From assembly GCF_003790525.1 (NCBI RefSeq), contig NZ_CP033635.1: DNA of 64,000 nt. The stretch is one strand, 5' to 3'. The translations under genes and the position numbers were made by a program. This DNA comes from Escherichia coli. GTDB lineage: Bacteria; Pseudomonadota; Gammaproteobacteria; Enterobacterales; Enterobacteriaceae. This document shows, piece by piece, positions 2,404-60,858 of the stretch (its first letter is position 1; the number at the start of each line of letters is the position of its first letter). The notes beneath the pieces were generated by a model. It saw only the letters and a list, made by a program, of their open reading frames with translations. It did not search any database and was not told where the DNA came from.

Positions 2404-2414
2404 TGGTTATTCCC

Positions 2415-3638: not shown

Positions 3639-3653
3639 CTCATTAAACCTGGG

Positions 3654-3986
3654 TTACTGGCTGACTTTAATATCCTGTAATAAAGAAAGGTTGCCCTGCT
3701 GGACAAAATTAAACGCCACTTTGTCGCCGGTTTTAATTTCGCTCATTTTCGTCTGCGGGGTGATGGTAAAGCGCATGGTCATCTCCGGCCAGTTCACGGC
3801 AGCAATCGGATCGTGATGGATGGTGATTTTTTTGCTTTCCAGATCAACACCTTTTACCACGCCAGTGGCGCTAATAACCTGTGGCTGTGCTTCGCTCATG
3901 GATTCATGATGATGTTCGTTAGCCTGGGCATTAAAGCCAATAACGGTAAACAGACTAAACATTGCGACTTGCAGTGCTTTTTTCAT
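3654..3986 (-). CDS. cusF: CusF, periplasmic copper/silver chaperone
   Basis: 110-aa ORF with signal peptide and His-rich motif NEHHHE; position between cusC and cusB. Confidence 0.92.
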   Translation of the reverse strand: MKKALQVAMFSLFTVIGFNAQANEHHHESMSEAQPQVISATGVVKGVDLESKKITIHHDPIAAVNWPEMTMRFTITPQTKMSEIKTGDKVAFNFVQQGNLSLLQDIKVSQ

Positions 3987-4009
3987 TTATTCTCTCCTGG
4001 AGTTAAAAA

Positions 4010-5392
4010 TTATTGCTGCCAACCGCCGCCTAAGGCGGTATATAAAGAAATTTCGTTAACCTGACGGGCATAATTCAGGTCAAGTAAAGTTTGTCGGGTT
4101 GCAAATAAAGAACGCTCGGCATCCAGCACTTCCAGATAACTTACTGCGCCGTGCTGATATAATGCCCGCGCCCGTTGCAAAGTAATTTTCAGCGATGCCA
4201 GATAACGCTGCTGGGCGCTGATTTGATCGTTCAGGCTTTGACGTAATGCCAGCGCATCTGCCACTTCTTTAAAGGCATTCTGGATTTTCTGTTCATAATT
4301 CACCACCGACTGCTGCTGGCGAATTTCGGCGATATCCAGATTGGCCTGGTTGCGTCCGGCATTAAAAATGGGGATCTCAATTTTGGGTATAAAATTCCAC
4401 ATCCCGCTGCTGGCGTTAAATAATGACGACAGATCGCTACTGGCGGTCGATATTCCGCTGGTCAGGCTGATAGACGGGAAAAATGCCGCGCGTGCAGCGC
4501 CAATATTGGCATTAGCCGCCATTAACGCGTGTTCAGCTTCCATAATATCAGGGCGCTGCAATAAGATTTGCGACGGCAAGCCCGCCGGTAATTTAACGCT
4601 TTGCAGGCTGTCGCTGTTTACTGTCTGCGCTTGCGGCAGCTTGCCGTAGCTTCCCAATAACAGTTGCAATGCATTATTCGCCTGCGCCAGTTCCCCCTGA
4701 CGTTTAGCGATGTCGCTGCGGGTACTTTCTATCACCCCGCGAGCCTGTTCTAGCGCCAGAACATTGCTGCTACCGGTCAACAGTTGTTTTTCGACAAATG
4801 CATATGACTGCTGATAATTACGCAGCGTTTCTTCGGCTATTTGCAATTGCGCATACGCCAGTTGCTGATTGAAATAGCTTTGCGCGACATTAGAAACCAG
4901 CAGAATATGCACCGCGCGCTGAGCTTCCTCAGTAGCTAAATAATTTTGACGCTCGGCTTCGCTCATGTTCTTTAAGCGCCCGAAAAAATCGAGGTCAAAG
5001 CTGGCGTTAAGGCCGGTCGAAAACTCCCGTGTCGTGGCGGTATTCCCTTTAAGATTACCGCTCCAGCTGCCGCTGCCCTCGCCATTGAGCTGTGGGTAGC
5101 GGTCGGCATCGGTCAGACGATATTGCGCCCGTGCCTCCTGCACTTTCAGCGCCGCCATGCGCAAATCCCGGTTATTCACCAACGCCTCGCTAATCAGCGT
5201 CTTCACCTGATTATCAACAAAAAAGGTGCGCCAGCCCGCGTTCTGGTAGTTATCTGCTGCGTTAACCAGGCCGTTCTGGCTGAGTGAGAACTGCTGCGGC
5301 ACGGGCATTGCCGGACGCTGATAATCCGGTGCCAGTGAACAACCGGTTAGCGCAAGGGCCACACAAAATGGCAGAAGTTTACAAGGAGACAT
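4010..5392 (-). CDS. cusC: CusC, outer-membrane efflux channel lipoprotein
   Basis: About 460-aa ORF, N-terminus MSPCKLLPFCVALALTGCSLAP with a lipobox; first gene of the cusCFBA operon. Confidence 0.92.
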   Translation of the reverse strand: MSPCKLLPFCVALALTGCSLAPDYQRPAMPVPQQFSLSQNGLVNAADNYQNAGWRTFFVDNQVKTLISEALVNNRDLRMAALKVQEARAQYRLTDADRYPQLNGEGSGSWSGNLKGNTATTREFSTGLNASFDLDFFGRLKNMSEAERQNYLATEEAQRAVHILLVSNVAQSYFNQQLAYAQLQIAEETLRNYQQSYAFVEKQLLTGSSNVLALEQARGVIESTRSDIAKRQGELAQANNALQLLLGSYGKLPQAQTVNSDSLQSVKLPAGLPSQILLQRPDIMEAEHALMAANANIGAARAAFFPSISLTSGISTASSDLSSLFNASSGMWNFIPKIEIPIFNAGRNQANLDIAEIRQQQSVVNYEQKIQNAFKEVADALALRQSLNDQISAQQRYLASLKITLQRARALYQHGAVSYLEVLDAERSLFATRQTLLDLNYARQVNEISLYTALGGGWQQ

Positions 5393-14083: not shown

Positions 14084-14845
14084 ATGCAATTGAGCAGCAG
14101 TGAACCTTGCGTGGTGATCCTGACCGAAAAAGAGGTAGAGGTAAGCGTCAATAACCATGCTACGTTTACCCTTCCGAAAAACTACCTGGCCGCCTTCGCG
14201 TGCAACAATAACGTCATTGAACTCTCAACGTTAAATCACGTATTAATCACCCACATCAACCGTAACATCATCAACGATTATCTGTTGTTTTTAAATAAGA
14301 ACTTAACCTGTATAAAGCCCTGGTCGCGGCTGGCAACTCCGGTTATCGCTTGTCATAGCCGTACACCGGAAGTGTTCCGGCTAGCCGCCAACCACAGCAA
14401 GCAGCAACCCAGCAAACCCTGCGAAGCGGAGTTGACGCGCGCATTGCTTTTTACCGTATTGTCTAACTTTCTTGAGCAATCGCGGTTTATTGCCCTACTG
14501 ATGTATATCTTACGCAGCAGCGTCCGCGACAGCGTCTGCCGCATTATTCAAAGCGATATTCAGCATTACTGGAATCTGCGAATTGTCGCCAGTTCGCTAT
14601 GTTTAAGCCCCAGCCTGCTCAAAAAGAAATTAAAAAACGAAAATACCAGCTATAGCCAGATTGTCACAGAGTGTCGTATGCGTTACGCCGTACAGATGTT
14701 ATTGATGGATAACAAAAATATCACTCAGGTAGCGCAATTATGTGGCTATAGCAGCACGTCGTACTTTATCTCTGTTTTTAAGGCGTTTTACGGCCTGACA
14801 CCGTTGAATTATCTCGCCAAACAGCGACAAAAAGTGATGTGGTGA
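14084..14845 (+). CDS. envY: EnvY, AraC-family transcriptional regulator
   Basis: 253-aa ORF with a C-terminal AraC-type HTH (ITQVAQLCGYSSTSYFISVFKAFYGLTP). Confidence 0.85.
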   Translation: MQLSSSEPCVVILTEKEVEVSVNNHATFTLPKNYLAAFACNNNVIELSTLNHVLITHINRNIINDYLLFLNKNLTCIKPWSRLATPVIACHSRTPEVFRLAANHSKQQPSKPCEAELTRALLFTVLSNFLEQSRFIALLMYILRSSVRDSVCRIIQSDIQHYWNLRIVASSLCLSPSLLKKKLKNENTSYSQIVTECRMRYAVQMLLMDNKNITQVAQLCGYSSTSYFISVFKAFYGLTPLNYLAKQRQKVMW

Positions 14846-14890
14846 AGGGCAAAGCGGAAACGGATAAGACGGGGATAAATGAAGAAGAAA

Positions 14891-14967
14891 TGGCGCGCCC
14901 TGCAGGATTCGAACCTGCGGCCCACGACTTAGAAGGTCGTTGCTCTATCCAACTGAGCTAAGGGCGC
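14891..14967 (-). tRNA. argU: tRNA-Arg, anticodon UCU (argU)
   Basis: Reverse complement reads GCGCCCTTAGCTCAGTTGGATAGAGCAACGACCTTCTAAGTCGTGGGCCGCAGGTTCGAATCCTGCAGGGCGCGCCA: cloverleaf with anticodon loop CUUCUAA and 3' CCA. Confidence 0.93.
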
Positions 14968-15208
14968 GTTGATACCGCAATGCGGTGTAATCGCGTGAAT
15001 TATACGGTCAACCCTTGCTGAGTCAATGGCTTTTGATCTGGTTGCTGAACAAGTGAACGACCGCGTCTGATTTTCTGATTTATTTCGTTATAGCGGCAAA
15101 CAAACGCACACCGCTGCGCGTCTGAATCAAGAAAACCCGTATTTTCATGTATCAAGTACAATTTCCCGCCCTAACGGAAAATTGTCCGATCCAATGAGAC
15201 TGGTAACT

Positions 15209-27104: not shown

Positions 27105-28168
27105 AACAGGTTTGCGTCCTCGGTAACGGGCAGTTAGGCCGTATGCTGCGTCAGGCAGGCGAACCGTTAGGCATTGCTGTCTGGCCAGTCGGGCTGGACG
27201 CTGAACCGGCGGCGGTGCCTTTTCAACAAAGTGTGATTACCGCTGAGATCGAACGCTGGCCGGAAACCGCATTAACCCGCGAGCTGGCGCGCCATCCGGC
27301 CTTTGTGAACCGCGATGTGTTCCCGATTATTGCTGACCGTCTGACTCAGAAGCAGCTTTTCGATAAGCTCCACCTGCCGACCGCACCGTGGCAGTTACTT
27401 GCCGATCGCAGCGAGTGGCCTGCGGTGTTTGATCGTTTAGGTGAGCTGGCGATTGTTAAGCGTCGCACTGGTGGCTATGACGGACGCGGTCAATGGCGTT
27501 TACGCGCCGATGAAACCGAACAGTTACCGACTGAATGCTACGGCGAATGTATTGTCGAGCAGGGCATAAACTTCTCTGGTGAAGTGTCGCTGGTTGGCGC
27601 GCGCGGCTTTGATGGTAGTACCGTGTTTTATCCGCTGACGCATAACCTGCATCAGGACGGTATTTTGCGCACCAGCGTCGCTTTCCCGCAGGCCAACGCG
27701 CAGCAGCAGGCGCAGGCCGAAGAGATGCTGTCGGCGATTATGCAGGAGCTGGGCTATGTGGGCGTGATGGCGATGGAGTGTTTTGTCACCCCACAAGGTC
27801 TGCTGATCAACGAACTGGCTCCGCGTGTGCATAACAGTGGGCACTGGACGCAAAACGGTGCCAGCATCAGCCAGTTTGAGCTGCATCTGCGGGCGATTAC
27901 CGATCTGCCGTTACCACAACCGGTGGTGAATAGTCCGTCGGTGATGATCAACCTGATTGGTAGCGATGTGAATTATGACTGGCTGAAACTGCCGCTGGTG
28001 CATCTGCACTGGTACGACAAAGAAGTCCGTCCGGGGCGTAAAGTGGGGCATTTAAATTTGACCGACAGCGACACATCGCGTCTGACCGCGACGCTGGAAG
28101 CCTTAATCCCGCTGCTGCCGCCAGAATATGCTAGCGGCGTGATTTGGGCGCAGAGCAAGTTCAGTTAA
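27101..28168 (+). CDS. purK: PurK, N5-carboxyaminoimidazole ribonucleotide synthase
   Basis: 355-aa ATP-grasp [19 protein letters not shown]; overlaps the purE stop by 4 bp. Confidence 0.93.
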
Positions 28169-28184
28169 TTGATGCTCATTTTCT

Positions 28185-28372
28185 TGCCGCATGCGGCGTG
28201 AACGCCTTATCCGGCCTACCGTTCCAACACCGACTGTAGGCCTGATAAGATGCGCCAGCATCGCATCAGGCATGGTGTGCCGATTGCCGGATGCGGCGTG
28301 AACGCCTTATCCGGCCTACCGTTCCGACACCGCCTGTAGACCTGATAAGACGCGCCAGCATCGCATCAGGCT
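28185..28372. repeat. REP/BIME cluster (two tandem roughly 100-bp units of paired REP palindromes)
   Basis: GCCGGATGCGGCGTGAACGCCTTATCCGGCCTAC and its inverted partner GTAGGCCTGATAAGACGCGCCAGCATCGCATCAGGC appear twice in tandem between convergent purK and ybcF. Confidence 0.85.
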
Positions 28373-28400
28373 AGATGTGCCAATTGCCTGGTGCCCATCA

Positions 28401-29294
28401 CTACAGCGAAATACAGGTCCCCGCTTCGCCCGCCAGCGTCTCTTCAATTCGCGATAACGCCCCAATCCACGCGGGTTTACCACGGCTTCTGACATAGCCA
28501 CTCACTGCCGTTACCTTCGGCCCCATCGAACCATCGGCTTTGGCAAGTGGCGCTAACTCATCCGGTGTGGCATGGCGAATGGCACGTTGCTGCGGCGTTC
28601 CCCAGTTTTCATATACCGCATCAGCATCGGTGAGGATCACCAGTCCATCGGCATTAATCTGCTCGGCGAGCAACGCAGCGGCGAGATCTTTATCAATCAC
28701 TGCTTCACTCCCTACTCCGTCATCCGTCACAGGCACACCGCCGCCGCCACTGCAAATCACCACATGCCCCTCTTTGAGCAACAACTCGATGGCTTCGCTG
28801 TCGAGAATATTACGCGGTTGCGGAGACGCCACCACCCGGCGCAAATATTTACCATCACGTTTCATCTGCCAGCCGTAAGCAGCTTCCAGTGCCTCTTGTT
28901 CTTCTGGCTGATAAACCGGACCGATAAACTTCTCTGGCTGCAAAAACGCCGGATCATCAGGCGAAACCTCAATGCGCGTCAGCACCGTCGTGACAGGCGG
29001 CATCTGCGGCTGTGCGCTCAAGCTCTGCACCAGCATATAGCCAATCATCCCCTGGCTTTCCGCCACCAGCACATCCAGCGGATACGGTTCTACCTCTTTC
29101 CACGCCAGATTCTGTAACGCCAACAGCCCCACCTGTGGCCCGTTGCCGTGAACAATCGCCAGCCGATAAGAACGGGCCAGGCGCGCCAGCGCGGGTACAG
29201 CACTGGCAATATTGCGATATTGATTTTCTGCCGTCAGCGCCTCACCGCGCTGGAGTAAGGCGTTGCCCCCAAGAGCCACAACCAGTGTTTTCAT
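28401..29294 (-). CDS. ybcF: Carbamate kinase-like protein (YbcF/ArcC family)
   Basis: 297-aa product from [18 protein letters not shown], a carbamate kinase fold signature; start overlaps the ylbF stop. Confidence 0.85.
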
Positions 29295-30106
29295 GGTTTT
29301 CCTTGTAATAATTGTTGGCCAAGCCAGAACCCCAGCAGCGTATCGGCCCCTGACGTATGCCCCAGCGCCAGCAGCGAATCGATCGCCGCTGCGGTACGTT
29401 TCGGGCAACTCAGAGCATGAACAAAGTGCAGGAGTGGCGAGGCGAAATATCCTTGCGCGGCATAACGTAAATAACTGACGCTCACCGCTGTGGTAACGAG
29501 TTGAAGATTGTCGGAACAGGCAAAAAACGGGCGACCGGAGCGCGCATCTAAAGCGCCATAATACCAGGCCGCCAGCAGCATTCCGCTCAGCGTGTCATCA
29601 TGACTTGGCGTTAATCCTGGGCCTTTACCCAGCCAGTGCCGCCAGTCGGTCTTAACGCCATTGAGCGCGGCCTGAAAACAGTGACGAAACTGGCGTAACT
29701 CAGCAGGCAGCGGATCGCTTGCCGCCATCGCCAGTGGCCCGAAAAGCCCGGTTTCCTCCGCGCGTTGCATCCATGCAGCTGCAAGCGGTTGAGGATGCGC
29801 AGGCGGCGTAATACGCAGCAAACAATAACGCTGTGGCTGTTTAACCGTGAAACGTCCGAGGCGAATGCCTTGAGCCACAACCTGTGGTCGTTCATTGCCG
29901 CATAATCCACCGCATAACGCATCGAATTGCGCGCGGCGAAGCACCCATCCTCCGGGGCCGAAACCACTCCCCTGACGATGCAGCGTTAACAGTTCGCCGC
30001 TTTCCGTCATCAGGTTAATCGCCCGCCGCCAGATGCCCGCTAACCGCCAGGACTGGCAATAATTCGGTGCACTACGGCTGGCAAGCAGAGGATGGATGAT
30101 CGTCAT
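29291..30106 (-). CDS. ylbF: YlbF, DUF2877-type protein of the fdrA-ylbE-ylbF cluster
   Basis: 271-aa product from [17 protein letters not shown]. Confidence 0.8.
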
Positions 30107-30116
30107 TGCGCGTTCC

Positions 30117-31376
30117 TCAACCAATACCCATGCTTTCAGCCAGAGCTTCCAGCGCCTGTTCAAAGCACGCCAGCGGTGCCCGCACGGTGCCTGCACCAAT
30201 CTGCCCGATCCCCGCCTCTTTATGGGCGATACCCGTATTGATGAGTGGTGTAATGCCGGTTTCTACCACGCGACGAATATCCAGCCCCAGACACGCGCCC
30301 TGGAAATCCCAGCCAGGGATCTGCAACTGCATATTGCGTTCAAGGAAGATTTCTGCCATCTCTTCAGATACTGCTCTGGCTGCTTCCATACCACCCGCAC
30401 CGACAAAGCGTGTTACGCCAGGGGCGGCGATCATTGCCGCACCACCGATACCAAAGGTTTCGGTAATCGCGCTATCGCCCATATCCGGGTTCGCCTGCTC
30501 CTGCGAGAAGCCGGTGAAAAACAGACCTTGCGGAGTGTTTACAGGCGCAGTAAACCAGCGCTCGCCCAGCCCACTTACCCGAATCCCGAACATATTGCCG
30601 TTGCGGGTCATAGCCGTAACGATGCTGCCCGCGCGGATCATCGCGCCTGCATCCATCGCCGCCTTGCAATAGGCCATCGCGAGGTTGAGGAAGAACTGAT
30701 CGGTCACGCTGAGGAAATCCATCACTTCCGCGATGTGCTGTTTATCGTGATTGAGGCGAGCAATTTGTGGGGCCAGCGCGCGCATCAACAGTGCTGAGGA
30801 TGCAATGTTGCGCTGATGGAACTCATCGCCCATGGTAATGCCCTGTGCCATCATCGCGGTGAGATCGATACCGCGCTCCATGCGCCCCAGCGCCGCGCTT
30901 AATACTGGCATTAACACATCGCGCATCCAGCGATGGCGAGTCAGGACATCTTCGCCGTAAGCGCCAAAACGCATCACTTTGCCGATACCTTCGTTGAGGT
31001 TGCAGTAGGCCCGGTTGCCGTCGGTCACGTTCTCGACCACCAGCATCGGCATACTGGCAGAAGTAATGCCACCCATTGGCCCGACGGCATTCACATGGTG
31101 ACAAGGAATGAAGTTCACTTCCCCCTGCTCCAGCATCGCCAGCGCCTGCGCTTCATCTTTCGCCCAGCCTTCGAACAGACATGCGCCCACGCACGCCCCT
31201 TTCATGGGTCCGGTCATCTCCTGCCAGCGCATTGGCGGCCCGGCGTGAAGCAGTGTTTTGCCCTTGTTTAGTTCGCTGATAAGTGAAGAAGCCGGTTGCA
31301 CATCCAGCCAGTGTGGACGAGCGCGACGAATTTGTTCGATAACCGCAGCATTGGCTTGCGCCACTGATGTAAACAT
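30117..31376 (-). CDS. ylbE: YlbE, DUF1116-type protein (intact 419-aa frame)
   Basis: Uninterrupted 419-aa [26 protein letters not shown]. Confidence 0.82.
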
Positions 31377-31385
31377 GGGAACCCC

Positions 31386-33053
31386 TTATTGCAAACGTTC
31401 TAATAAACGAGCCAGTTTTTTATTGCCGCCGGCGACTGGCGACCATTGGTAATGCACAACCGGTTTGCTGGCGCTTTGTAGCTCCAGCGCAAAGCTGCGT
31501 AATCCGATGTTAATCACGGCGACGTTTTCCAGTAATGACGGTGTGTGTTGCTGTGTGGCAGGCGAGAGCGGATGAATTAACGCCGCCGCCAGCAAGGTGG
31601 CTTCCGGTAGCGAACTCACTACCGCGATCCCCGCATCTTCCAACGTGGCGATTTGCTGCGCGCGGCATTGCGGGTCACGTTCAGTGCCTGTCACCGTGGC
31701 AATGGCATACAGTGGTTGATTGTCTGAACGCGCGGCACAGGCTTTTTGCCAGGCGCTCACCAGCGAGGCGGCAGGATCGGCGGTCGCACCGAAGCCAATC
31801 ACGACATCAAGCAGCAACACGCGCACTTGCGGTTTAGCGCCGAGATCGGCAATTAACAGGTTGCGTAAGGTCGGGTCGATCATCGGATGGGGACGCCCGA
31901 CGGTGTAAAAATCATCGCCCAGGTCGAGGATCTGATGTCCGTCGGCGTCCAGCATCATGCCATGTTGATGGGTATCGTCGGCTTCCACGCCAAGGTGTCC
32001 GGCAAGTAATCCCGCCGCTTCAGCAGCCAGCGTACCGCCGGTATACAAACCGCAAATAAATCCGCTGCTGACAGGCGCTATCGCGTTACGTCGCGCAGTG
32101 ACGCGTGAAAGCAGACAAGCCAGGCGTGCGGCCTCATCCAGCGAGGAGGCAAACCAGACATTCTCGTCGCGGGCCACCGCCGGGGTATAACCTAAAAACA
32201 ACGCCACCGTCGGTTTGCCAGTTGCTTTCATGGCATTAACAATTTTCAGACGCACAGCTTCGGCAGGTGGTTTTGAAACAAATGCCAGCACTTCGCTTTT
32301 CTCGTCTGCACTAAGCATTTCCAGCGCCGTTAGCGCACTGATGCCGCCCACTTCACGGCTGAGGTCGCGCCCGCCAAGGCCAATCGCATGAGTAATTCCC
32401 TCCCCTGCCAGCGCAATCTGTGAGCACAGCTCCTGAATCCCGGTACCGGAAGCGCCAATGACGCCAATGTTGCCTTCCGGCATCACGTTAGCAAAAGCCA
32501 GCGGCGTGGCGGCAATCATCGACGTACCGCAGTCCGGCCCCATCACCAGCAAGCCTTTTTCCCGCGCGCGGGTTTTAAGTTGGATTTCATCTTCCAGCGT
32601 GACGTTATCGGAGAACATCATCACGTTGAGGTTGCGATCCAGCGCCTGGTTCGCCAGCTCCGCCGCATACTCGCCAGCCACTGAAATCAGCGCCAGACTG
32701 GCATCGGGTAATTTCTGACAGGCACTGTCCCAACGACGCACCTGCGTCAACGCCTGGCTGCTGCCTGAACCCTGCGCCAGTTGTTTTAGCGCCTCTTCAA
32801 GCTGCTGCATAACCGCCTGCGCGATCCCCGCATCTGCCGCTTCGCTACGAATTGCCACGCAAATATCGTTCGGCGTGGCGTGATTAAAATCGTCATGCCA
32901 GAAACCTGTGGTATCTAATAACGCTTTATTGGCGGGCGTACCCATCATTACGGAAACATCATCAACATTTTCTGATTCGCTGAGTTTTCGTGAAATAATC
33001 ATTAAACTGACCGAATCCTGAAAACACCCTTTTTTAATAAAGGCGTGGATCAT
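31386..33053 (-). CDS. fdrA: FdrA, acyl-CoA synthetase (NDP-forming)-like protein
   Basis: 555-aa ORF MIHAFIKKGCFQDSVSLMIISRKL, CoA-binding/succinyl-CoA-synthetase-like layout. Confidence 0.85.
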   Translation of the reverse strand: MIHAFIKKGCFQDSVSLMIISRKLSESENVDDVSVMMGTPANKALLDTTGFWHDDFNHATPNDICVAIRSEAADAGIAQAVMQQLEEALKQLAQGSGSSQALTQVRRWDSACQKLPDASLALISVAGEYAAELANQALDRNLNVMMFSDNVTLEDEIQLKTRAREKGLLVMGPDCGTSMIAATPLAFANVMPEGNIGVIGASGTGIQELCSQIALAGEGITHAIGLGGRDLSREVGGISALTALEMLSADEKSEVLAFVSKPPAEAVRLKIVNAMKATGKPTVALFLGYTPAVARDENVWFASSLDEAARLACLLSRVTARRNAIAPVSSGFICGLYTGGTLAAEAAGLLAGHLGVEADDTHQHGMMLDADGHQILDLGDDFYTVGRPHPMIDPTLRNLLIADLGAKPQVRVLLLDVVIGFGATADPAASLVSAWQKACAARSDNQPLYAIATVTGTERDPQCRAQQIATLEDAGIAVVSSLPEATLLAAALIHPLSPATQQHTPSLLENVAVINIGLRSFALELQSASKPVVHYQWSPVAGGNKKLARLLERLQ

Positions 33054-33369
33054 AACAACTCCTTAAAAATTGCACCCATGGCAATTGCACGAGCAGTGTT
33101 AATGTGGCGATTACGGTATCGATGACAACGAGTAAATAAGGTGATGAATATCACACAGGGATTATTAACAAAAGAATTCAAATAACCGCCGGGCTATTAC
33201 GCGTTATTTTTTAATAAGCGTGATTGTTTTAAAAACCAGGTTAAAAGCGAGCGGATTATCAAATAAATTCTAACTATATTTTTTTGCCTGTCTGGATCAC
33301 ATAATCCAGATATTTTCCCTGTATGTTAATTGCAGTCATGCTTCACATCGTCGTTAAAAAGGAAGACAG

Positions 33370-34419
33370 ATGAAAATCAGTCGGGAAACACTCCACCAGC
33401 TAATTGAGAATAAACTCTGCCAGGCTGGGTTAAAACGTGAGCACGCTGCAACCGTGGCTGAAGTATTGGTTTACGCCGATGCCAGAGGGATCCACTCTCA
33501 TGGCGCGGTGCGCGTGGAATACTACGCCGAACGCATTTCAAAAGGCGGCACCAACCGTGAACCGGAATTTCGTCTTGAAGAAACCGGACCGTGCTCGGCA
33601 ATTTTACATGCCGACAATGCCGCCGGACAGGTCGCGGCGAAAATGGGTATGGAACATGCCATCAAAACCGCCCAGCAAAATGGCGTTGCGGTGGTCGGTA
33701 TCAGCCGGATGGGTCACAGCGGCGCAATCTCTTATTTTGTACAGCAGGCAGCTCGCGCCGGGTTAATTGGCATTTCGATGTGCCAGTCCGATCCAATGGT
33801 GGTGCCGTTTGGCGGCGCGGAAATTTACTACGGTACTAACCCACTGGCCTTTGCCGCGCCGGGAGAAGGCGACGAGATCCTTACCTTTGATATGGCGACT
33901 ACCGTACAGGCATGGGGAAAAGTGCTCGACGCCCGTTCGCGTAATATGTCTATCCCGGATACCTGGGCGGTCGATAAAAACGGTGCACCAACAACCGATC
34001 CGTTCGCGGTACATGCTCTGCTCCCCGCCGCTGGGCCGAAAGGGTATGGCCTGATGATGATGATTGACGTCCTCTCAGGCGTCTTACTCGGCTTACCGTT
34101 TGGGCGACAGGTTAGTTCGATGTATGACGATTTACACGCCGGGCGTAATTTGGGGCAATTACATATCGTTATTAACCCGAACTTTTTCTCCTCCAGCGAA
34201 TTATTCCGTCAACATCTTAGCCAGACCATGCGCGAATTAAATGCCATTACCCCCGCGCCCGGTTTTAATCAGGTTTATTATCCCGGACAGGATCAGGATA
34301 TTAAACAACGCAAAGCCGCCGTCGAAGGCATCGAAATTGTTGATGATATTTACCAGTATTTGATTTCCGACGCGCTTTATAACACGTCATACGAAACGAA
34401 AAATCCCTTTGCGCAATAA
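33370..34419 (+). CDS. allD: AllD, ureidoglycolate dehydrogenase
   Basis: 349-aa ORF MKISRETLHQLIENKLCQAGLKREHA, Ldh_2 family. Confidence 0.9.
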   Translation: MKISRETLHQLIENKLCQAGLKREHAATVAEVLVYADARGIHSHGAVRVEYYAERISKGGTNREPEFRLEETGPCSAILHADNAAGQVAAKMGMEHAIKTAQQNGVAVVGISRMGHSGAISYFVQQAARAGLIGISMCQSDPMVVPFGGAEIYYGTNPLAFAAPGEGDEILTFDMATTVQAWGKVLDARSRNMSIPDTWAVDKNGAPTTDPFAVHALLPAAGPKGYGLMMMIDVLSGVLLGLPFGRQVSSMYDDLHAGRNLGQLHIVINPNFFSSSELFRQHLSQTMRELNAITPAPGFNQVYYPGQDQDIKQRKAAVEGIEIVDDIYQYLISDALYNTSYETKNPFAQ

Positions 34420-34440
34420 TTATTGAGACAGGACTTTCTT

Positions 34441-35676
34441 ATGATTACACATTTCCGTCAAGCTATAGAAGAAACGCTGCCCTGGCTTTCCTCTTTTGGC
34501 TCTGACCCAACGGGTGGAATGACCCGTTTACTTTATTCGCCGGAATGGTTGGAAACCCAGCAGCAATTTAAAAAAAGAATGGCAGCAAGCGGGCTGGAAA
34601 CACGTTTCGATGAAGTGGGGAATTTATACGGTCGCCTGAGTGGCACCGAATATCCACAGGAAGTGGTTCTGAGCGGTTCGCATATCGATACCGTGGTTAA
34701 CGGCGGTAACCTCGACGGACAATTCGGCGCACTGGCGGCGTGGCTGGCAATTGACTGGTTGAAAACGCAATACGGCGCGCCGTTACGTACGGTCGAAGTG
34801 GTGGCGATGGCAGAAGAAGAAGGCAGCCGCTTCCCGTATGTCTTCTGGGGCAGTAAAAATATCTTTGGGCTGGCGAATCCTGACGACGTGCGGAATATCT
34901 GTGATGCCAAAGGAAATAGTTTTGTCGATGCGATGAAGGCTTGCGGATTTACTCTGCCGAACGCCCCACTAACTCCGCGTCAGGATATTAAAGCCTTTGT
35001 CGAACTGCATATCGAACAGGGCTGTGTGCTGGAAAGTAATGGGCAATCAATTGGCGTGGTGAATGCAATTGTCGGGCAACGTCGCTATACGGTGACGCTG
35101 AATGGCGAATCAAACCATGCAGGCACCACGCCGATGGGTTATCGTCGTGATACGGTTTACGCTTTCAGTCGCATTTGCCATCAGTCGATCGAAAAAGCGA
35201 AAAAGATGGGCGACCCGCTGGTGCTGACCTTTGGCAAGGTGGAACCGCGCCCGAATACGGTAAATGTGGTGCCGGGGAAAACCACGTTCACCATTGATTG
35301 TCGTCATACCGACGCCGCCGTGCTGCGCAATTTCACCCAACAGTTAGAAAACGACATGCGGGCGATTTGCGATGAAATGGACATTGGTATTGATATCGAT
35401 TTATGGATGGACGAAGAACCGGTGCCGATGAATAAGGAGCTGGTCGCCACCCTGACAGAATTGTGTGAAAGCGAAAAACTGAATTACCGGGTAATGCACA
35501 GTGGTGCCGGGCACGACGCACAAATTTTCGCGCCTCGCGTGCCGACCTGCATGATTTTCATTCCCAGCATCAACGGGATCAGCCATAACCCGGCGGAACG
35601 CACCAATATTACCGACCTTGCCGAAGGGGTCAAAACGTTGGCACTCATGCTTTATCAACTTGCCTGGCAGAAATAA
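34441..35676 (+). CDS. allC: AllC, allantoate amidohydrolase (M20 family)
   Basis: 411-aa product from MITHFRQAIEETLPWLSSFG. Confidence 0.9.
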   Translation: MITHFRQAIEETLPWLSSFGSDPTGGMTRLLYSPEWLETQQQFKKRMAASGLETRFDEVGNLYGRLSGTEYPQEVVLSGSHIDTVVNGGNLDGQFGALAAWLAIDWLKTQYGAPLRTVEVVAMAEEEGSRFPYVFWGSKNIFGLANPDDVRNICDAKGNSFVDAMKACGFTLPNAPLTPRQDIKAFVELHIEQGCVLESNGQSIGVVNAIVGQRRYTVTLNGESNHAGTTPMGYRRDTVYAFSRICHQSIEKAKKMGDPLVLTFGKVEPRPNTVNVVPGKTTFTIDCRHTDAAVLRNFTQQLENDMRAICDEMDIGIDIDLWMDEEPVPMNKELVATLTELCESEKLNYRVMHSGAGHDAQIFAPRVPTCMIFIPSINGISHNPAERTNITDLAEGVKTLALMLYQLAWQK

Positions 35677-35686
35677 GGAGTCATAA

Positions 35687-36472
35687 ATGGGATATTTAAA
35701 TAACGTCACCGGTTACCGCGATGATTTACTGGCTAACCGTGCGATTGTGAAACACGGTAATTTCGCGCTGTTAACCCCGGACGGCCTGGTAAAAAATATT
35801 ATTCCGGGCTTTGAAAATTGTGACGCGACAATCCTCTCCACGCCAAAACTGGGTGCCTCTTTTGTTGATTATCTGGTCACACTGCATCAAAACGGCGGCA
35901 ACCAACAGGGCTTCGGTGGCGAAGGCATTGAAACGTTCCTGTATGTGATCTCTGGAAATATCACTGCCAAAGCCGAAGGTAAAACATTTGCCTTAAGCGA
36001 AGGTGGCTATCTTTATTGCCCGCCAGGCTCCTTAATGACGTTTGTTAACGTCCAGGCCGAAGACAGCCAAATCTTTTTATATAAGCGTCGCTATATTCCG
36101 GTAGAAGGTCATGCGCCGTGGCTGGTTTCTGGCAATGCCAGCGAACTGGAACGCATTCATTATGAAGGCATGGACGATGTTATTCTGCTGGATTTTCTGC
36201 CCAAAGAGTTAGGTTTTGATATGAACATGCATATCCTCTCTTTTGCACCAGGTGCCAGCCACGGTTATATCGAAACCCACGTTCAGGAACACGGTGCCTA
36301 TATTCTTTCCGGTCAGGGGGTTTATAACCTCGACAATAACTGGATCCCGGTGAAAAAAGGCGATTACATCTTTATGGGCGCTTATTCTTTACAGGCTGGT
36401 TATGGCGTAGGGCGTGGTGAAGCGTTCAGCTATATTTACTCGAAAGATTGCAACCGCGACGTAGAGATTTAA
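35687..36472 (+). CDS. allE: AllE (YlbA), (S)-ureidoglycine aminohydrolase, bicupin
   Basis: 261-aa ORF MGYLNNVTGYRDDLLANRAIVKHG. Confidence 0.88.
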   Translation: MGYLNNVTGYRDDLLANRAIVKHGNFALLTPDGLVKNIIPGFENCDATILSTPKLGASFVDYLVTLHQNGGNQQGFGGEGIETFLYVISGNITAKAEGKTFALSEGGYLYCPPGSLMTFVNVQAEDSQIFLYKRRYIPVEGHAPWLVSGNASELERIHYEGMDDVILLDFLPKELGFDMNMHILSFAPGASHGYIETHVQEHGAYILSGQGVYNLDNNWIPVKKGDYIFMGAYSLQAGYGVGRGEAFSYIYSKDCNRDVEI

Positions 36473-36513
36473 GTCATACCACTCGCCTGATTATTTTTAG
36501 CTATGTTGGATTT

Positions 36514-36541
36514 TGCCACGGTTTATTCCGTGGCTTTTTTT
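36514..36541 (+). terminator. Rho-independent terminator after allDCE
   Basis: GCCACGG-TTTATTC-CGTGGC stem-loop followed by TTTTTTT. Confidence 0.75.
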
Positions 36542-36556
36542 GCGGTAAATTCAGGT

Positions 36557-37747: not shown

Positions 37748-38019
37748 TATCAATCCTTTTTCAACAAATTATTCGATGCGTTCCCACGGAATAAGATTAT
37801 CCATAAGAACAGCCAGTAAAATTCCGACCAGTAAGCCGTTACTGAGCAGAGGACGAAGCGTTAATGGAAGGTCTTGCAGATACACAGGCGGTAATGCCAT
37901 TAAAAATATGCCGACAAATAACGGCAATGCGAGTCGATAAATATTGCGAGCGGTAAACGTTATTTGCTGGCTAAACACCAGCGCGGAAAAGAGTAAAGGC
38001 AGATGGTAATGACTCCAAC

Positions 38020-38523
38020 TTACTGATAGTGTTTTATGTTCAGATAATGCCCGATGACCTTGTCATGCAGCTCCACCGATTTTGAGAACGACAGTGACTT
38101 CCGTCCCAGCCTTGCCAGATGTTGTCTCAGATTCAGGTTATGCCGCTCAATTCGCTGAGTGTAACGCTTGCTGATTACGTGCAGCTTTCCCTTCAGGCGG
38201 GATTCATACAGCGGCCAGCCATCCGTCATCCATACCACGACCTCAAAGGCCGACAGCAGGCTTAGAAGACGCTCCAGTGTGGCCAGAGTGCGTTCACCGA
38301 ATACGTGCGCAACAACCGTCTTCCGGAGCCTGTCATACGCGTAAAACAGCCAGCGCTGGCGCGATTTAGCCCCGACGTATCCCCACTGTTCGTCCATTTC
38401 CGCGCAGACGATGACGTCACTGCCCGGCTGTATGCGCGAGGTTACCGACTGCGGCCTGAGTTTTTTAAATGGCGGAAAATCGTGTTGAGGCCAACGCCCA
38501 TAATGCGGGCGGTTGCCCGGCAT
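38020..38523 (-). CDS. insB: InsB, IS1 transposase catalytic ORF (expressed by -1 frameshift as InsAB')
   Basis: 167-aa [54 protein letters not shown]. Confidence 0.95.
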
Positions 38524-38717
38524 CCAACGCCATTCATGGCCATATCAATGATTTTCTGGTGCGTACCGGGTTGAGAAGCGGTGTAAGTGAACTGCAGTTG
38601 CCATGTTTTACGGCAGTGAGAGCAGAGATAGCGCTGATGTCCGGCGGTGCTTTTGCCGTTACGCACCACCCCGTCAGTAGCTGAACAGGAGGGACAGCTG
38701 ATAGAAACAGAAGCCAC
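38442..38717 (-). CDS. insA: InsA, IS1 repressor/transposase N-terminal protein
   Basis: 91-aa [43 protein letters not shown] (zinc-finger plus HTH). Confidence 0.95.
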
Positions 38718-39902
38718 TGGAGCACCTCAAAAACACCATCATACACTAAATCAGTAAGTTGGCAGCATCACCAAGGCAGATAAGAAACCAACATGACCGC
38801 GCTACTCACCGGTAAAGGGATACTGCAAAACAGTCGTGTGAGTGCCGGAACCAGTGCCACCAGCAGGCAAATAACGCTGCCATAAATAAACGATCGTCGC
38901 GTGTAATCGCCAGTCTGGGTTAATAAACCAATGGATGAAACAAACGGTGAAAATGGAATTACCGCCAGCGGCACGGTTATCAGCGTCATAAATCCGGTCG
39001 CCACAAAGCTGCGACGATAACGCGTATTCCCCGCGCCCTGTTGCGGATAAAAAACATCCGTGCCACGAATCGCACCGTAGGTATTGCTGATATTTACCAG
39101 ACCTGTAATCACCGCCGTCAGAATAATCCCCGGCGACAAAGCACCGCCACTGCCGAGCGGGAACCACTGCCAGTGCAACTCACCGGAGAGCGAATGCGAA
39201 GAAGGAAAGCAAAAGTACCACAACAACCAGCCGGTTATCGTACCGACCAGCAGGCCATAACGGGCAAAACGTTGCGGCAGGAAGATAATCATCGCCAGTA
39301 CCAGGCACATCACCGCCACCGAGAGCGCGAACGGCGGTAACTGAATTTTAAAATTCGGGTCGGCTATGCCAAACGGCAGCCCGAGCATACCTTTGAAAAA
39401 GATAGTGGTCAGCTGCGCGCCCAGCATCAACATAAACAAGACCATCACCGACGGCGTAAATAACCGCGCCAGACGATGACCTAATCCGCTAAAACCAATC
39501 AACATCGTCAGCACGCCAGAGAGCGCAATTCCCACCGCCAGGCTGGTAGCGATATCGTTGATCGGTGTCCCGCGCGATGCTTCGCCAAGGGTGATAGTCA
39601 GGATGGTTCCCCACCACAGGCCACCCGGCCCTTCCATAATAGCGCGACGATGACCGCAGAACGCCTGAGCGAAGCAGGCCAGTGCGGTAGCAAGAAAAGC
39701 ATATTGCGTGAGCGTAAGCAGGCTACTTTGCGGCAACTGAAAAGCAGAAAGTAGCGTAGGAGGAACCACAACCGTGTTGCAAAAAATAAAGAAAAACCAC
39801 TGAAATCCTGATAACAGGCTTTCGCGGCCCACTGCAAAATTGAACATAAACACACCTTAACCGGAGAATGCCCGCCACAAGGACGGGCATTGCAGGGCCA
39901 GA

Positions 39903-49171: not shown

Positions 49172-50281
<1,110 letters not shown>

Positions 50282-50309
50282 TAGGCGGTATTCTGTGCAC
50301 GCTGTTCAT

Positions 50310-50396
50310 GCCGGATGCGGCGTGAACGCCTTATCCGGCCTACGGTTAAGTGCAGTTTTGTAGGCCTGATAAGACGCGCCAGCGTCGCATCAGGCA
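50310..50396. repeat. REP/BIME element (inverted REP pair)
   Basis: GCCGGATGCGGCGTGAACGCCTTATCCGGCCTAC plus inverted GTAGGCCTGATAAGACGCGCCAGCGTCGCATCAGGC between convergent selU and ybbP. Confidence 0.85.
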
Positions 50397-50411
50397 ATCT
50401 AACGCCTGTCA

Positions 50412-52826
50412 TCATCCCGCAAACTGCCTGAACAGCGCCTTACCCTTAACCAGTCGCGCACCCAGCCAGCCGCCGCAAAGCGACAGCAGCAGCGCACCGC
50501 TGCACGGCAGCACAATCCACAATCGCCAGTCTGGCTCCCACGGGAAATCAAACACTTTCGCCTGCAACACTGCCAGCGCCGTTTCCGCACCAATTGCGGC
50601 CACCAGGCCAGAAACAAACCCAAGCATGGCGAACTCACACCACAATGTCGTGCGCAGCAGCTTTTTCCCCGCACCGAGTGTGCGCCACACCACCAGCTCC
50701 TGATGACGCTGACGCATTCCCACCTGCACCTGTGCCAGCAACAGCAACATACCGCAGGCGGTGACCAGCACCACCATCACCTCCAGCGCCCGACTTACCT
50801 GCTCCAGCACCTGACCGACCTGTTTTAAAATCGCGCCAATGTCTAACAGGCTAATGGTCGGGAACTGGCGGTTGAGTTGCGTCAACATGCCGTTGCCATT
50901 CTCCCAGCGGAAACTGGTAAGCCAGCTCTGCGGTTGCCCGTCTAATGCCCCTTCAGGGAAAATAAAATAGAAATTAGGCCGCAGACTTTCCCAGTCCACT
51001 TTGCGCAGGCTGGTCACTTTAGCGCGGAACTCCTGGGTATCGCCCATAAAAGTCACGGTATCACCGAGGGCAACGTTTAAGCGTTTCGCCAGCCCCTCTT
51101 CCATCGACACTTCATCGGCTTTTGGCGGCCAGTTACCGGCGACAATCGGATTATGATCGGGCCGCGTATTTTGCCAGGTAAGATTGAGTTCGCGATTGAG
51201 CGCCTCATCTTCATTGCCTTCTGTCGGCTTGCCGTTAATCGCCGTCAGTCTCGCCCGCACCACCGGATAAAACGATTCCGGGACTATCTGATGTTCCGCG
51301 AGGAACGCTTTTAGCGGTGCTACCTGTTCTGTGGCGATGTTAATTAAAAAGTAGTTCGGGCTTTCTGGAGGTAGCTGCTGCTGCCAGCGGTCGAGCAGAT
51401 CGCCACGCAACACCAGCAGCAGTGCCAGCAGCATAAAGGAGAGCGAAAATGCCGAAAGCTGGCTTAACGTTGACCACGGCTGACGTAACAGGCGGCTAAC
51501 CGCCAGGCGCAGAGGCAGCGATTTCAGCGTCATGCGGCGAAGTACATTCAGCAGCATCCAGCCCAGCACACCGCACAGCAAAGCCAGTACTACCGCGCCC
51601 GCCAGCACCGCCCAAAGCAGCATGCTGCCACCCATTAATCCGGCGAGCAGCAGCACAACCACTACACTGACAATCGGCAGATAAAACTTCAGCGGCCAGA
51701 CGTTCGCTACCACATCATTACGTAATACGCGTAAAGGCTGCGTTGCCAGCAACAAGCGGTATGGTCGTAGCCCCACCAGCAGCGAGATAACCGTCATGGT
51801 GCCGAGCGCCCACAGCCACGGCCAGAGGCTGGCTGGCGGTAGTGCGGCAGGCAGAACGGGCTTGAGCAGCACCATCAACACGTTTTCGAACAACAGGCCT
51901 ATCGCCCCACCGGTAACGGCTGAAAGCGTCAGCACCATCAACCACTGACCGACGATTAGCTTACGCAGTTGCGCTCGCCCTGCCCCCAGCGTTTTGAGGA
52001 TCGCCACCAGATCGTAGCGACTGCGACAGTAATGATTCATCGCCACCGCCACCGCTGCCACTGCCAGCAGCAAGGTCAGAAGCGCAGAAAGCAGCAGGAA
52101 CTGTTGCGAGCGTTCCATCGAGCGCCCCAGCGCGCCTTCGTCCTGTTCCAGACCGTACCAGCGTTGTTCGGGTTTAAGCTGGGGTAACAACCATTTCTCA
52201 TAGCCGTCGAGCTGGTTCTCGTTGCCGCCGAATTTATAGCGCCAGGTGACCCGACTTCCCGGCTGCACGGCTCCGGTTTTATCGACATCCGCCAGATTCA
52301 TCATCAGACGCGGAGCCATCTGGAAGGGGTTAAAACCGGAATCCGGTTCCTGAATCACTTCTCCGGCAATCCGCAAGGTGGCATCGCCCACGTCAATGGT
52401 GTCGCCCGTTTTCAGGTTAAGCAGTGCCATCAGGCGTGGGGCCAGCAATACGCTGCCCGCCTGCGGTTTCAGGCCTGGGGGATTGGTTTGCAGATCGCCA
52501 TACATCGGGTAGATATCATCCACCGCTTTGACGTTCGCCAGCTGCGGTGTGTCGCCTGCAAATGTCATGGTGGCGAAAGTCAGCTGCTTGCCGACTTTCA
52601 GGCCGCGCTTTTGCGCTTCCTCCAGCCACGCTTGCGGCACTTCGCGCGAACTGCGCAACGCCCGATCGCCCGCCATAAACTCCCGGCTTTGCTGGCTTAA
52701 GCCCTTCTCCATGCGATCGCTGATATTGCCCAGCGCCAGCACGCAGGCCACCGCCAGGCTTAGCGCCAGCCAGACAATTAATAGCGACGGCGAGCGCCAT
52801 TCGCGCCAGAACCAACGTGCAATCAT
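50412..52826 (-). CDS. ybbP: YbbP, ABC transporter permease (FtsX/MacB-like with large periplasmic domains)
   Basis: 804-aa polytopic ORF MIARWFWREWRSPSLLIVWLALSLAVA. Confidence 0.88.
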   Translation of the reverse strand: MIARWFWREWRSPSLLIVWLALSLAVACVLALGNISDRMEKGLSQQSREFMAGDRALRSSREVPQAWLEEAQKRGLKVGKQLTFATMTFAGDTPQLANVKAVDDIYPMYGDLQTNPPGLKPQAGSVLLAPRLMALLNLKTGDTIDVGDATLRIAGEVIQEPDSGFNPFQMAPRLMMNLADVDKTGAVQPGSRVTWRYKFGGNENQLDGYEKWLLPQLKPEQRWYGLEQDEGALGRSMERSQQFLLLSALLTLLLAVAAVAVAMNHYCRSRYDLVAILKTLGAGRAQLRKLIVGQWLMVLTLSAVTGGAIGLLFENVLMVLLKPVLPAALPPASLWPWLWALGTMTVISLLVGLRPYRLLLATQPLRVLRNDVVANVWPLKFYLPIVSVVVVLLLAGLMGGSMLLWAVLAGAVVLALLCGVLGWMLLNVLRRMTLKSLPLRLAVSRLLRQPWSTLSQLSAFSLSFMLLALLLVLRGDLLDRWQQQLPPESPNYFLINIATEQVAPLKAFLAEHQIVPESFYPVVRARLTAINGKPTEGNEDEALNRELNLTWQNTRPDHNPIVAGNWPPKADEVSMEEGLAKRLNVALGDTVTFMGDTQEFRAKVTSLRKVDWESLRPNFYFIFPEGALDGQPQSWLTSFRWENGNGMLTQLNRQFPTISLLDIGAILKQVGQVLEQVSRALEVMVVLVTACGMLLLLAQVQVGMRQRHQELVVWRTLGAGKKLLRTTLWCEFAMLGFVSGLVAAIGAETALAVLQAKVFDFPWEPDWRLWIVLPCSGALLLSLCGGWLGARLVKGKALFRQFAG

Positions 52827-55824: not shown

Positions 55825-55990
55825 TTGAAATGCGATGTGCTGGTTTGTAGGCCTGATAAGACGCGCCAGCGTCGCATCAGGCATCCGCGCATAGCCGCCG
55901 GATGCGGCGTGAACGCCTTATCCGGCCTACCAAACCGTGCTAATTCAATACATTGCAGGTGCCATGTAGGTCTGATAAGACGCATCAGGC
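55825..55990. repeat. REP/BIME cluster
   Basis: Several copies of the GTAGGCCTGATAAGACGC...GCATCAGGC and GCCGGATGCGGCGTGAACGCCTTATCCGGCCTAC palindromes between convergent ybbN and fetB. Confidence 0.85.
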
Positions 55991-59060: not shown

Positions 59061-59423
59061 TTACTCTTCCCGGCCTTTACCCATACTTTTTTGGTCTTCA
59101 TCCGGATAGTGTTTTTTTAGATATTCCAGGACGTTTTTATTGACCTTGTGTTGGGTATACACCCACCCTTTCCAGTAATCAGGTTGGTCCAGGTAAACTT
59201 CTGGCGGAATGGTGAAATCAGAAAGCGTTAACCATTCGGCTAACAGATCGGGGTTTCGTTTCTGGATCAACTGCAACAGCATGATCAGCGACATGGCAGA
59301 GGCAGGAGCCGTACTATCGCCGCTTAAATACTTCCACACTGTCGACCGGTTCGAACGAAAAAGGATCGGTAGCAATGCCCGGTCCAGATTCATTTCATTA
59401 AAAATCTTCTCAAATTCATTCAT
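59061..59423 (-). CDS. Hypothetical 120-aa cytoplasmic protein, possible small DNA-binding regulator
   Basis: ORF with AGGAAA Shine-Dalgarno 6 nt upstream of the ATG; no signal peptide; segment RSNRSTVWKYLSG resembles the recognition helix of small phage-type HTH proteins; transcribed divergently from the adjacent 338-aa gene. I do not recognise the protein. Confidence 0.5.
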   Translation of the reverse strand: MNEFEKIFNEMNLDRALLPILFRSNRSTVWKYLSGDSTAPASAMSLIMLLQLIQKRNPDLLAEWLTLSDFTIPPEVYLDQPDYWKGWVYTQHKVNKNVLEYLKKHYPDEDQKSMGKGREE

Positions 59424-59788
59424 TTAAATTTCCTGCCTGGCGTAAACCTCTTAAAAATTGAGATTTATCAAAGAAACGCATTTTAGCACACATCAGGAAC
59501 CGCTTCACGTTTAGTCCAGAAACAGAATTTATTTCGCTTATCAAAACAAGTCTTTACTCTTTTTTACATTGAAAGAGCACGAAATAATTTCCTTTTTTAT
59601 TTATATAAGAAACTATTTTTGTTCCTTATTGGTGGTGTTTACGCTTACACAAGACAAAAATGCGCTTTACATCACACAAATGGCGGCGTAGATTTCGATC
59701 AAATTGCAACGCAGTTTATTTCTTAAAACAATATTATTTGTTTCTTATAGAAACATTAATGCGACTTATTTTGAACAAGAGAAAATGA

Positions 59789-60805: not shown

Positions 60806-60858
60806 TTTTAACAGCAATTTCTTATTCGCAATTTTCCGCACATTATTTAAGGTTAACA

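Follow-up and report, generated by a model that had tools for sequence, protein, structure and literature searches.

An intact fdrA-ylbE-ylbF-ybcF cluster in Escherichia coli is very probably the ordinary allFGHK operon known from K-12 MG1655

Does an intact ylbE set the fdrA-ylbE-ylbF-ybcF operon of this Escherichia coli chromosome apart from that of K-12, and does the operon serve the oxamate branch of anaerobic allantoin catabolism? The initial annotation of the window, by which we mean the whole 64-kb stretch of DNA analyzed here, answered both questions with a cautious yes, treating the four genes as candidates for a carbamoyl-transferring enzyme and its carbamate kinase. The enzyme at issue, oxamic transcarbamylase, was a 60-year-old orphan until 2024.

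Inspection of the ORF list and direct reading of the junctions upheld the annotated picture of four co-oriented, closely packed genes diverging from allDCE, and placed them on the minus strand at 28401-33053 (Table 1). The frame of ylbE was continuous over 419 codons, as annotated. Of the spacings given, the 4-bp ATGA overlap of ylbF and ybcF and the 10-nt gap between ylbE and ylbF stood, and the gap between fdrA and ylbE was corrected from 10 to 9 nt. A Shine-Dalgarno-like motif lies 5' of all four start codons (AAGGAG, GGGG, GAGGA and AAGGA). In the mechanical ORF list, ylbF and ybcF begin at TTG codons and are longer than when read from their annotated ATG codons. Over its full 4653 bp, the stretch matched E. 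coli SMS-3-5 (NC_010498.1) and further genomes from the SMS-3-5 lineage with 100% identity, and RefSeq annotates the same four genes there. The chromosome is of the SMS-3-5 type. A consensus scan of 28100-33450 yielded promoter-like and terminator-like sites at numbers not above those in shuffled sequence (3 versus 3.3 and 5 versus 6.3), and so neither located the allF promoter nor suggested signals internal to the operon.

Table 1. Coordinates of the allFGHK operon and its flanking features in the window
Feature	Coordinates	Strand	Start to stop	Description
allD-allC-allE operon	33370..36472	+		Ureidoglycolate dehydrogenase, allantoate amidohydrolase, ureidoglycine aminohydrolase
allD/allF control region	33054..33369	.		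316-bp divergent spacer, same length as in MG1655
AllS-binding fragment (-203/-144)	33197-33256			EMSA fragment from PMC12535856
ArcA-P-binding fragment (-142/-83)	33136-33195			EMSA fragment from PMC12535856
fdrA = allF	33053..31386	-	ATG to TAA	555 aa
ylbE = allG	31376..30117	-	ATG to TGA	419 aa, without internal stop
ylbF = allH	30106..29291	-		271 aa
ybcF = allK	29294..28401	-		297 aa; start overlaps ylbF stop in ATGA
Convergent ybcF-purK spacer	28169..28400	.		REP/BIME-type units of 100 nt, two in tandem; bounds the operon on its 3' side
Direct repeat in ybcF-purK spacer	28184-28283 / 28284-28383			91% identity
Rfam naRNA4 match in ybcF-purK spacer	28239-28316

The initial annotation tentatively described ylbE as frameshifted in MG1655. 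The current reference does not bear this out: NC_000913.3 carries an intact 419-aa ylbE (b4572), and the enzyme was characterized with MG1655 genes. The alignment with the MG1655 allele that had been proposed as a check revealed 414 identical residues of 419, both proteins being full length. Analysis of complete E. coli genomes identified ylbE in 5417 of 5426, and its span was exactly 1260 bp in 59 of the 60 genomes sampled across the range. The old MG1655 frameshift (reference version U00096.2) was an error or a stock variant in the reference, an account that rests on three papers (PMC3364942, PMC4759930, PMC3045373); a 2012 study pointed out that no other E. coli has it and that its likely source was a sequencing error (PMC3364942), and the ylbE+ allele is present in MG1655 stocks (PMC4759930). 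In a simulation, shortening the G5 run (nt 252-256 of ylbE) by a single G produced a stop at codon 87. The old error may have lain in this run. Because ylbE is intact in nearly all E. coli, MG1655 included, an intact ylbE is the norm and not a distinguishing feature; the ylbE pseudogene of MG1655 is an obsolete reference artifact, and intact alleles elsewhere in the species are thus nothing special.

The function of these genes has been established in K-12 MG1655 by Kim & Kim (2022, 2024, 2025), whose work named fdrA-ylbE-ylbF allFGH and ybcF allK. There, allFGH encodes oxamic transcarbamylase: oxamate formation was lost in the single mutants and in the allFGH triple mutant, except that the allH single mutant still formed 1.2 mM, and was fully restored only by allFGH together (PMC11326118). 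Purified AllFGH converted oxamate and carbamoyl phosphate to oxalurate, the assay having been run in this reverse direction because oxalurate was unavailable; catalysis of the reversible reaction oxalurate + phosphate <-> oxamate + carbamoyl phosphate has been shown for the MG1655 proteins only (PMC11326118). The allK product is the catabolic carbamate kinase, with measured kinetics, and RT-PCR demonstrated co-transcription of ybcF with the other three genes (PMC9843812). Anaerobiosis plus allantoin induced the operon 38-fold; induction was lost in allS and arcA mutants, and EMSA detected binding, with AllS and ArcA activating the allFGHK promoter (PMC12535856). The role proposed for the locus, an oxamate carbamoyltransferase coupled to a carbamate kinase, has accordingly passed from candidate to experimental fact (PMC11326118, PMC9843812).

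The MG1655 operon (b0518, b4572, b0520 and b0521) matches that of the window in gene order, gene lengths, the 9/10-nt spacers, the ATGA overlap, the divergence from allDCE and the syntenic position between purK and allD; the downstream REP spacer is longer in the window (232 bp versus 194 bp). Across the four genes we counted 134 nucleotide and 25 amino-acid substitutions, the latter distributed as 10, 5, 5 and 5 over fdrA, ylbE, ylbF and ybcF with no change in length. Protein identity was 98.2% for FdrA (545/555), 98.8% for YlbE, 98.2% for YlbF (266/271) and 98.3% for YbcF, and no substitution in YlbE or YlbF fell in an invariant column of its family. D170, D171, H250 and S252 are among the invariant residues of AllH, and AllG contains a glycine-rich segment at 300-330. 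By length, identity and syntenic position, AllFGH of the window is orthologous to the biochemically characterized MG1655 proteins. The dN/dS values were 0.107, 0.032, 0.099 and 0.092 for fdrA, ylbE, ylbF and ybcF; on the opposite strand, allD, allC and allE are intact, have the MG1655 lengths and gave values of 0.03-0.09. All 16 allantoin-regulon genes compared (the operon plus 12 others) were intact and under purifying selection. We conclude that this is very probably the ordinary intact allFGHK operon of E. coli, with a function already known from the MG1655 work. The window adds only one more intact allele, the function having been assigned to exactly these genes in K-12.

The products of the three neighboring genes allF, allG and allH are the FdrA-type (CoA_binding plus Ligase_CoA), AllG/DUF1116 and AllH/DUF2877 proteins that oxamic transcarbamylase requires. 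FdrA scored 1036.6 bits against NCBIfam NF004760 (cutoff 433) and contains Pfam domains PF02629 (CoA_binding) and PF00549 (Ligase_CoA); PDB entry 3DMY spans its residues 82-555. YlbE matched PF06545 (AllG, formerly DUF1116) at E=1.7e-97 and YlbF matched PF11392 (AllH, formerly DUF2877) at E=1.9e-29. Across Enterobacterales and Orbales, YlbE is 72-93% identical and YlbF 38-68%. The AlphaFold model of YlbF has a pLDDT of 92.6 and found no close solved fold, and fold searches with the AllG and AllH models returned no informative neighbors. An AllG homologue from Enterococcus faecalis V583 is present in the PDB (3CLQ), uncharacterized and without assigned function; in these model-based searches, the AllG and AllH folds appear to have no solved relative other than this entry. 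YbcF scored 615.8 bits against the NCBIfam equivalog NF006926 (cutoff 416) and 423.7 bits against TIGR00746 (arcC; cutoff 358.25), and matched PDB carbamate kinases at E=3.5e-89 to 2e-37; these full-length matches above curated cutoffs assign it by sequence to the carbamate kinases (ArcC family, amino-acid kinase fold). The names AllG and AllH are already in use by Pfam and newer NCBI annotation, and FdrA is still named 'acyl-CoA synthetase' in most RefSeq records.

We considered it very unlikely that YlbE and/or YlbF alone form the transcarbamylase and that FdrA works as a true acyl-CoA synthetase, such as an oxamate:CoA ligase in the step that follows. The domain content of FdrA and its similarity to the alpha subunit of succinyl-CoA synthetase speak for such a role, as do the 2012 CanOE hypothesis (PMC3364942) and the RefSeq product name 'acyl-CoA synthetase FdrA'. 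However, deletion of allF abolishes oxamate formation, allGH restores only 16% of it, and purified AllF-AllG-AllH was active in an assay mixture that contained neither CoA nor ATP (PMC11326118). FdrA also lacks the GHAGA phosphohistidine motif, its residues 223 to 352 are free of His, and a Pfam search identified no ATP-grasp domain, the type of partner provided by the succinyl-CoA synthetase beta subunit, in the operon.

We also examined the control region shared with allD, placing the AllS and ArcA sites by the stated center positions and EMSA fragment limits of PMC12535856; arcA itself lies outside the window. The region carries 10 substitutions versus MG1655, 9 of them inside the AllS or ArcA fragments. 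Regulatory decay was tried as an explanation for this clustering and rejected: an 8-strain alignment revealed that the stretch varies species-wide, with the window agreeing with the majority at most of its variable sites, MG1655 the outlier at several, and the cores of the AllS and ArcA motifs, which in the window are predicted sites, invariant. That the operon is cryptic or decaying in this lineage, through regulatory drift or missense changes despite open frames, is extremely unlikely: the window haplotype is rare (44 of 5423 genomes at least 99% identical, the rest ~96%), most promoter substitutions fall in the bound fragments and IS1 has entered the neighborhood, but the dN/dS of the four genes (0.03-0.11, with similar values over the whole regulon), the species-majority promoter bases and the untouched invariant columns of YlbE and YlbF all argue against it.

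The single lesion among the allantoin genes is a lineage-specific IS1 that splits the accessory permease gene ybbY, which is unbroken in MG1655. In the sister strain SBF22, a deletion adjacent to IS1 removed glxK-allE-allC-allD. The IS1 element in ybbY lies upstream of glxK and could perturb the neighboring operon; through polarity on glxK it could shift the allantoin flux of this lineage towards the oxamate branch. The initial annotation had suggested a fully functional pathway in this strain. A working pathway is consistent with the intact genes, the dN/dS values and the conserved regulatory motifs; the contrast with MG1655 that the suggestion implied fell away, since ylbE of that strain is intact as well.

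As an ordinary allFGHK operon, the four genes would cover the final part of the oxamate branch in anaerobic allantoin breakdown. AllD would oxidize ureidoglycolate to oxalurate; downstream of AllFGH, AllK would transfer phosphate to ADP, giving ATP and carbamate, the carbamate would decay to NH3 and CO2, and the oxamate would be excreted. In MG1655 the yield is about 0.9 mol oxamate per mol allantoin. Transcription would start from the 316-bp spacer common to allD and would need both AllS (allantoin signal) and ArcA (anaerobiosis). At the level of the subunits, domain homology suggests that AllF, which resembles the succinyl-CoA synthetase alpha subunit and appears to have lost the phosphohistidine loop, plausibly provides a phosphate or acyl-phosphate site. 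Here the N-carbamoyl bond would be phosphorolysed, in the way that succinyl-CoA synthetase converts succinyl-CoA and phosphate to succinyl phosphate, and AllG, the most conserved subunit, together with AllH, with its own fold, would supply ureide binding and the remainder of the active site. In its most specific form, which we hold only tentatively and would sooner doubt than accept, AllFGH would be a derivative of 'site I' of succinyl-CoA synthetase that is now a carbamoyl-phosphate-forming phosphorolase, with AllF binding phosphate and carbamoyl phosphate and AllG/AllH forming the ureide site. For the question of how AllFGH is built and how it catalyzes, the window sequence offers no better test than the K-12 genes.

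FdrA shares the CoA_binding and Ligase_CoA domains with succinyl-CoA synthetase and ADP-forming acyl-CoA synthetases, and its residues 118-290 align with residues 66-238 of SucD, where the alignment ends; BLASTP of the C-terminal domain against SucC or SucD gave nothing significant, and Ligase_CoA was seen there only by the Pfam profile. Unlike in succinyl-CoA synthetases, the published AllFGH reaction involves no CoA or nucleotide. The transcarbamylases of the classical ATCase/OTCase fold (PyrB, ArgF/ArgI, YgeW and putrescine transcarbamylase) catalyze the same class of reversible carbamoyl transfer, in which the group passes between carbamoyl phosphate and the nitrogen of an amine or amide. 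A Pfam search identified no OTCace_N domain, which binds carbamoyl phosphate, and no OTCace domain, which binds Asp/Orn, in AllF, AllG or AllH, and the fold search with the AllG and AllH models found no ATCase/OTCase-like structural neighbor. AllFGH consists of three different subunits, whereas the classical transcarbamylases are homotrimers (PMC11326118). Catabolic OTCase and PTCase are likewise coupled to a carbamate kinase for the formation of ATP.

The fdrA-ylbE-ylbF-ybcF operon (newer names allF-allG-allH-allK) is an ordinary conserved core-genome operon that is already known, and its function was established by experiment between 2022 and 2025. RT-PCR revealed co-transcription of the four genes, and YbcF was identified as a carbamate kinase (Kim & Kim 2022; PMC9843812). 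In MG1655, no oxamate was produced from allantoin when allF or allG was deleted, just 1.2 mM oxamate remained after deletion of allH, and wild-type levels were regained only with allFGH together (Kim & Kim 2024; PMC11326118). Purified AllF-AllG-AllH converted oxamate and carbamoyl phosphate to oxalurate, and its Km for carbamoyl phosphate was 1.3 mM and that for oxamate 36.9 mM (PMC11326118). In K-12, AllFGH has been shown to convert oxalurate and phosphate to oxamate and carbamoyl phosphate, and AllK to convert carbamoyl phosphate and ADP to ATP and carbamate, which breaks down into NH3 and CO2. The initial annotation had cited a proposal that the fdrA, ylbE and ylbF products supply the missing transcarbamylase, alongside a YbcF-like carbamate kinase, and we traced this proposal to a 2012 CanOE case study (PMC3364942); the MG1655 experiments settle this assignment. 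Transcription is induced 38-fold by anaerobiosis and allantoin, and depends on AllS and ArcA, each of which binds defined fragments of the allD-allF spacer (Kim & Kim 2025; PMC12535856).

The four operon proteins of the window carry the corresponding family signatures. FdrA scored 1036.6 bits against the NCBIfam FdrA subfamily (cutoff 433) and contains the Pfam domains CoA_binding and Ligase_CoA. YlbE matched PF06545 and YlbF matched PF11392, currently named 'Oxamate carbamoyltransferase subunit AllG' and 'AllH', respectively, and newer RefSeq records give the ylbF product as 'oxamate carbamoyltransferase subunit AllH family protein'. YbcF scored above the carbamate kinase equivalog cutoffs. 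Klebsiella pneumoniae has been stated to lack these genes (PMC11326118), but fdrA, ylbE, ylbF and arcC are listed in the allantoin island of hypervirulent ST23 K. pneumoniae (PMC7718023), and our homologue lists for YlbE and YlbF likewise named K. quasipneumoniae, K. spallanzanii and K. pasteurii.

Coordinates of the four operon genes in the window
Gene	Position	Strand	Product	Basis
fdrA	33053..31386	minus	555 aa	ORF list and junctions read directly
ylbE	31376..30117	minus	419 aa, single unbroken frame	ORF list and junctions read directly
ylbF	30106..29291	minus	271 aa	ORF list and junctions read directly
ybcF	29294..28401	minus	297 aa	ORF list and junctions read directly

The ORF list and a reading of every junction bore out four co-oriented genes diverging from allDCE, with ylbE continuous. 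The tight packing and the ylbF/ybcF overlap (ATGA) also stood; the gaps were corrected to 9 nt for fdrA-ylbE and 10 nt for ylbE-ylbF, and the strand to minus. A Shine-Dalgarno-like motif was present at the start of all four genes, and a consensus scan identified no excess of promoter-like or terminator-like sites within the operon over shuffled sequence. Across the 316-bp spacer allD starts at 33370 on the opposite strand, followed by allC and allE. The entire allantoin regulon lies within the window (allS, allA, allR, gcl, hyi, glxR, allW, allB, ybbY, glxK, allE, allC and allD). The convergent ybcF-purK spacer (28169-28400; 232 bp compared with 194 bp in MG1655) consists of two 100-nt units of REP/BIME type in tandem (28184-28283 and 28284-28383, 91% identical). 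Rfam naRNA4 (CssrE) matches were found in this spacer at 28239-28316 and again at 55850-55927, and the convergent allE-glxK spacer contains a match to the enterobacterial sRNA STnc480 (36479-36545, minus strand; 81.9 bits, gathering score 72).

The initial annotation had suggested, with some uncertainty, that ylbE is frameshifted in MG1655. Alignment to the MG1655 allele refuted this contrast: ylbE (b4572) is annotated as intact in the current reference NC_000913.3 (1260 bp, 419 aa), and the two proteins differ at 5 of 419 residues. Published papers report the intact ylbE+ allele in MG1655 stocks (PMC4759930) and in NCM3722; a SNP and one inserted base set it apart from the old reference. The experimental allantoin work was done with MG1655 genes. 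A run of five G residues at ylbE nt 252-256 is intact in both the window and MG1655, and simulated removal of one G led to a stop at codon 87. This run may be the site of the historical MG1655 error. Among 5426 RefSeq complete genomes, ylbE was present at a coverage of at least 80% in 5417 and the whole four-gene stretch in 5407, and the ylbE span was exactly 1260 bp in 59 of 60 records sampled across the whole ranking. Genomes with an intact ylbE are thus the norm. The supposed contrast is an artefact of an obsolete reference.

All 16 allantoin-regulon genes compared had the MG1655 length and no internal stops, with dN/dS values of 0.00 to 0.11 (fdrA 0.107, ylbE 0.032, ylbF 0.099, ybcF 0.092) and a nucleotide divergence of 1.2-4.7%. 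No YlbE or YlbF substitution fell in an invariant column of the family alignments. A functional oxamate branch in the window strain is a reasonable prediction from these sequences; arcA is located outside the window. The control region differed from that of MG1655, on which the published EMSA was performed, by 10 substitutions, nine of them between -195 and -107 (counted from the allF ATG) within the AllS and ArcA fragments. In an alignment of eight strains (the window, MG1655 and six diverse others), the segment from -104 to -200 (33157-33253) varied species-wide and held most of the spacer variation; at most variable sites the window carried the majority base, and at several MG1655 was the strain that departed from it. 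No variation was seen in the motif cores near -181, -163, -134 and -117. Only four positions varied outside this segment: a substitution close to allD that is private to the window, and -80, -78 and -56 towards allF.

The regulon carries a single lesion, a 768-bp IS1 (38005-38772) that splits the accessory permease gene ybbY (37769-39847), with a 9-bp target duplication (ybbY nt 1067-1075). The ybbY-IS1 junction was found in just 17 of 5426 complete E. coli genomes. Since ybbY precedes glxK in the same orientation, the insertion could be polar on glxK. In the sister strain E. coli SBF22 (NZ_CP067235.1; designated L013, positions 946-4625) the same IS1 lies ~185 bp upstream of fdrA, and the C-terminal part of ybbY, glxK, allE, allC and allD are missing. 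This looks like an IS1-adjacent deletion, which would leave the strain unable to break down allantoin and has probably taken the AllS site of the allF promoter with it.

E. coli SMS-3-5 (NC_010498.1) and a group of related genomes matched the operon at all 4653 bases. RefSeq annotates the four genes alike on NC_010498.1, flanked by purK and allDCE. Over 28.6 kb the only difference from NC_010498.1 was synonymous, at allE codon 23 (35755; His CAC versus CAT). By sequence, the window comes from another version of SMS-3-5 or from a strain very closely related to it. The operon haplotype is rare, with at least 99% identity in only 44 of ~5420 genomes; nearly all others were 95-99% identical (~96% for ylbE). 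Elsewhere, mnmH/selU directly follows ybbP (~50281-50412), with no counterpart of the K-12 ylbG of that spot, and a YadA-family autotransporter adhesin and three hypothetical ORFs lie between cueR and ybbJ (~59061-61481). At ~14800-14970, envY directly follows tRNA-Arg (argU), presumably where the DLP12 prophage sits in K-12.

The window sheds no special light on how AllFGH is built and how it works. YlbE is far more conserved across Enterobacterales than YlbF (72-93% versus 38-68% identity); the models had pLDDT values of 77 and 92.6, respectively, and their only informative solved neighbor was the uncharacterized Enterococcus faecalis protein 3CLQ. The PDB holds FdrA (3DMY) and 3CLQ; no structure of AllH or the complex was found there. 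FdrA 118-290 aligned to residues 66-238 of succinyl-CoA synthetase alpha. Since no GHAGA phosphohistidine loop was found in FdrA and a domain search identified no ATP-grasp partner in the operon, FdrA probably does not act as a nucleotide-linked CoA ligase, and its contribution may instead be a phosphate or acyl-phosphate site. Phosphohistidine and ATP-grasp define true succinyl-CoA-synthetase-type ligases, and FdrA departs from them in both. Nor do the operon proteins belong to the classical transcarbamylases, as no ATCase/OTCase-type domains or folds were found among them. In contrast, domain content, orthology, synteny and operon structure all place the window operon within the characterized allFGHK system.
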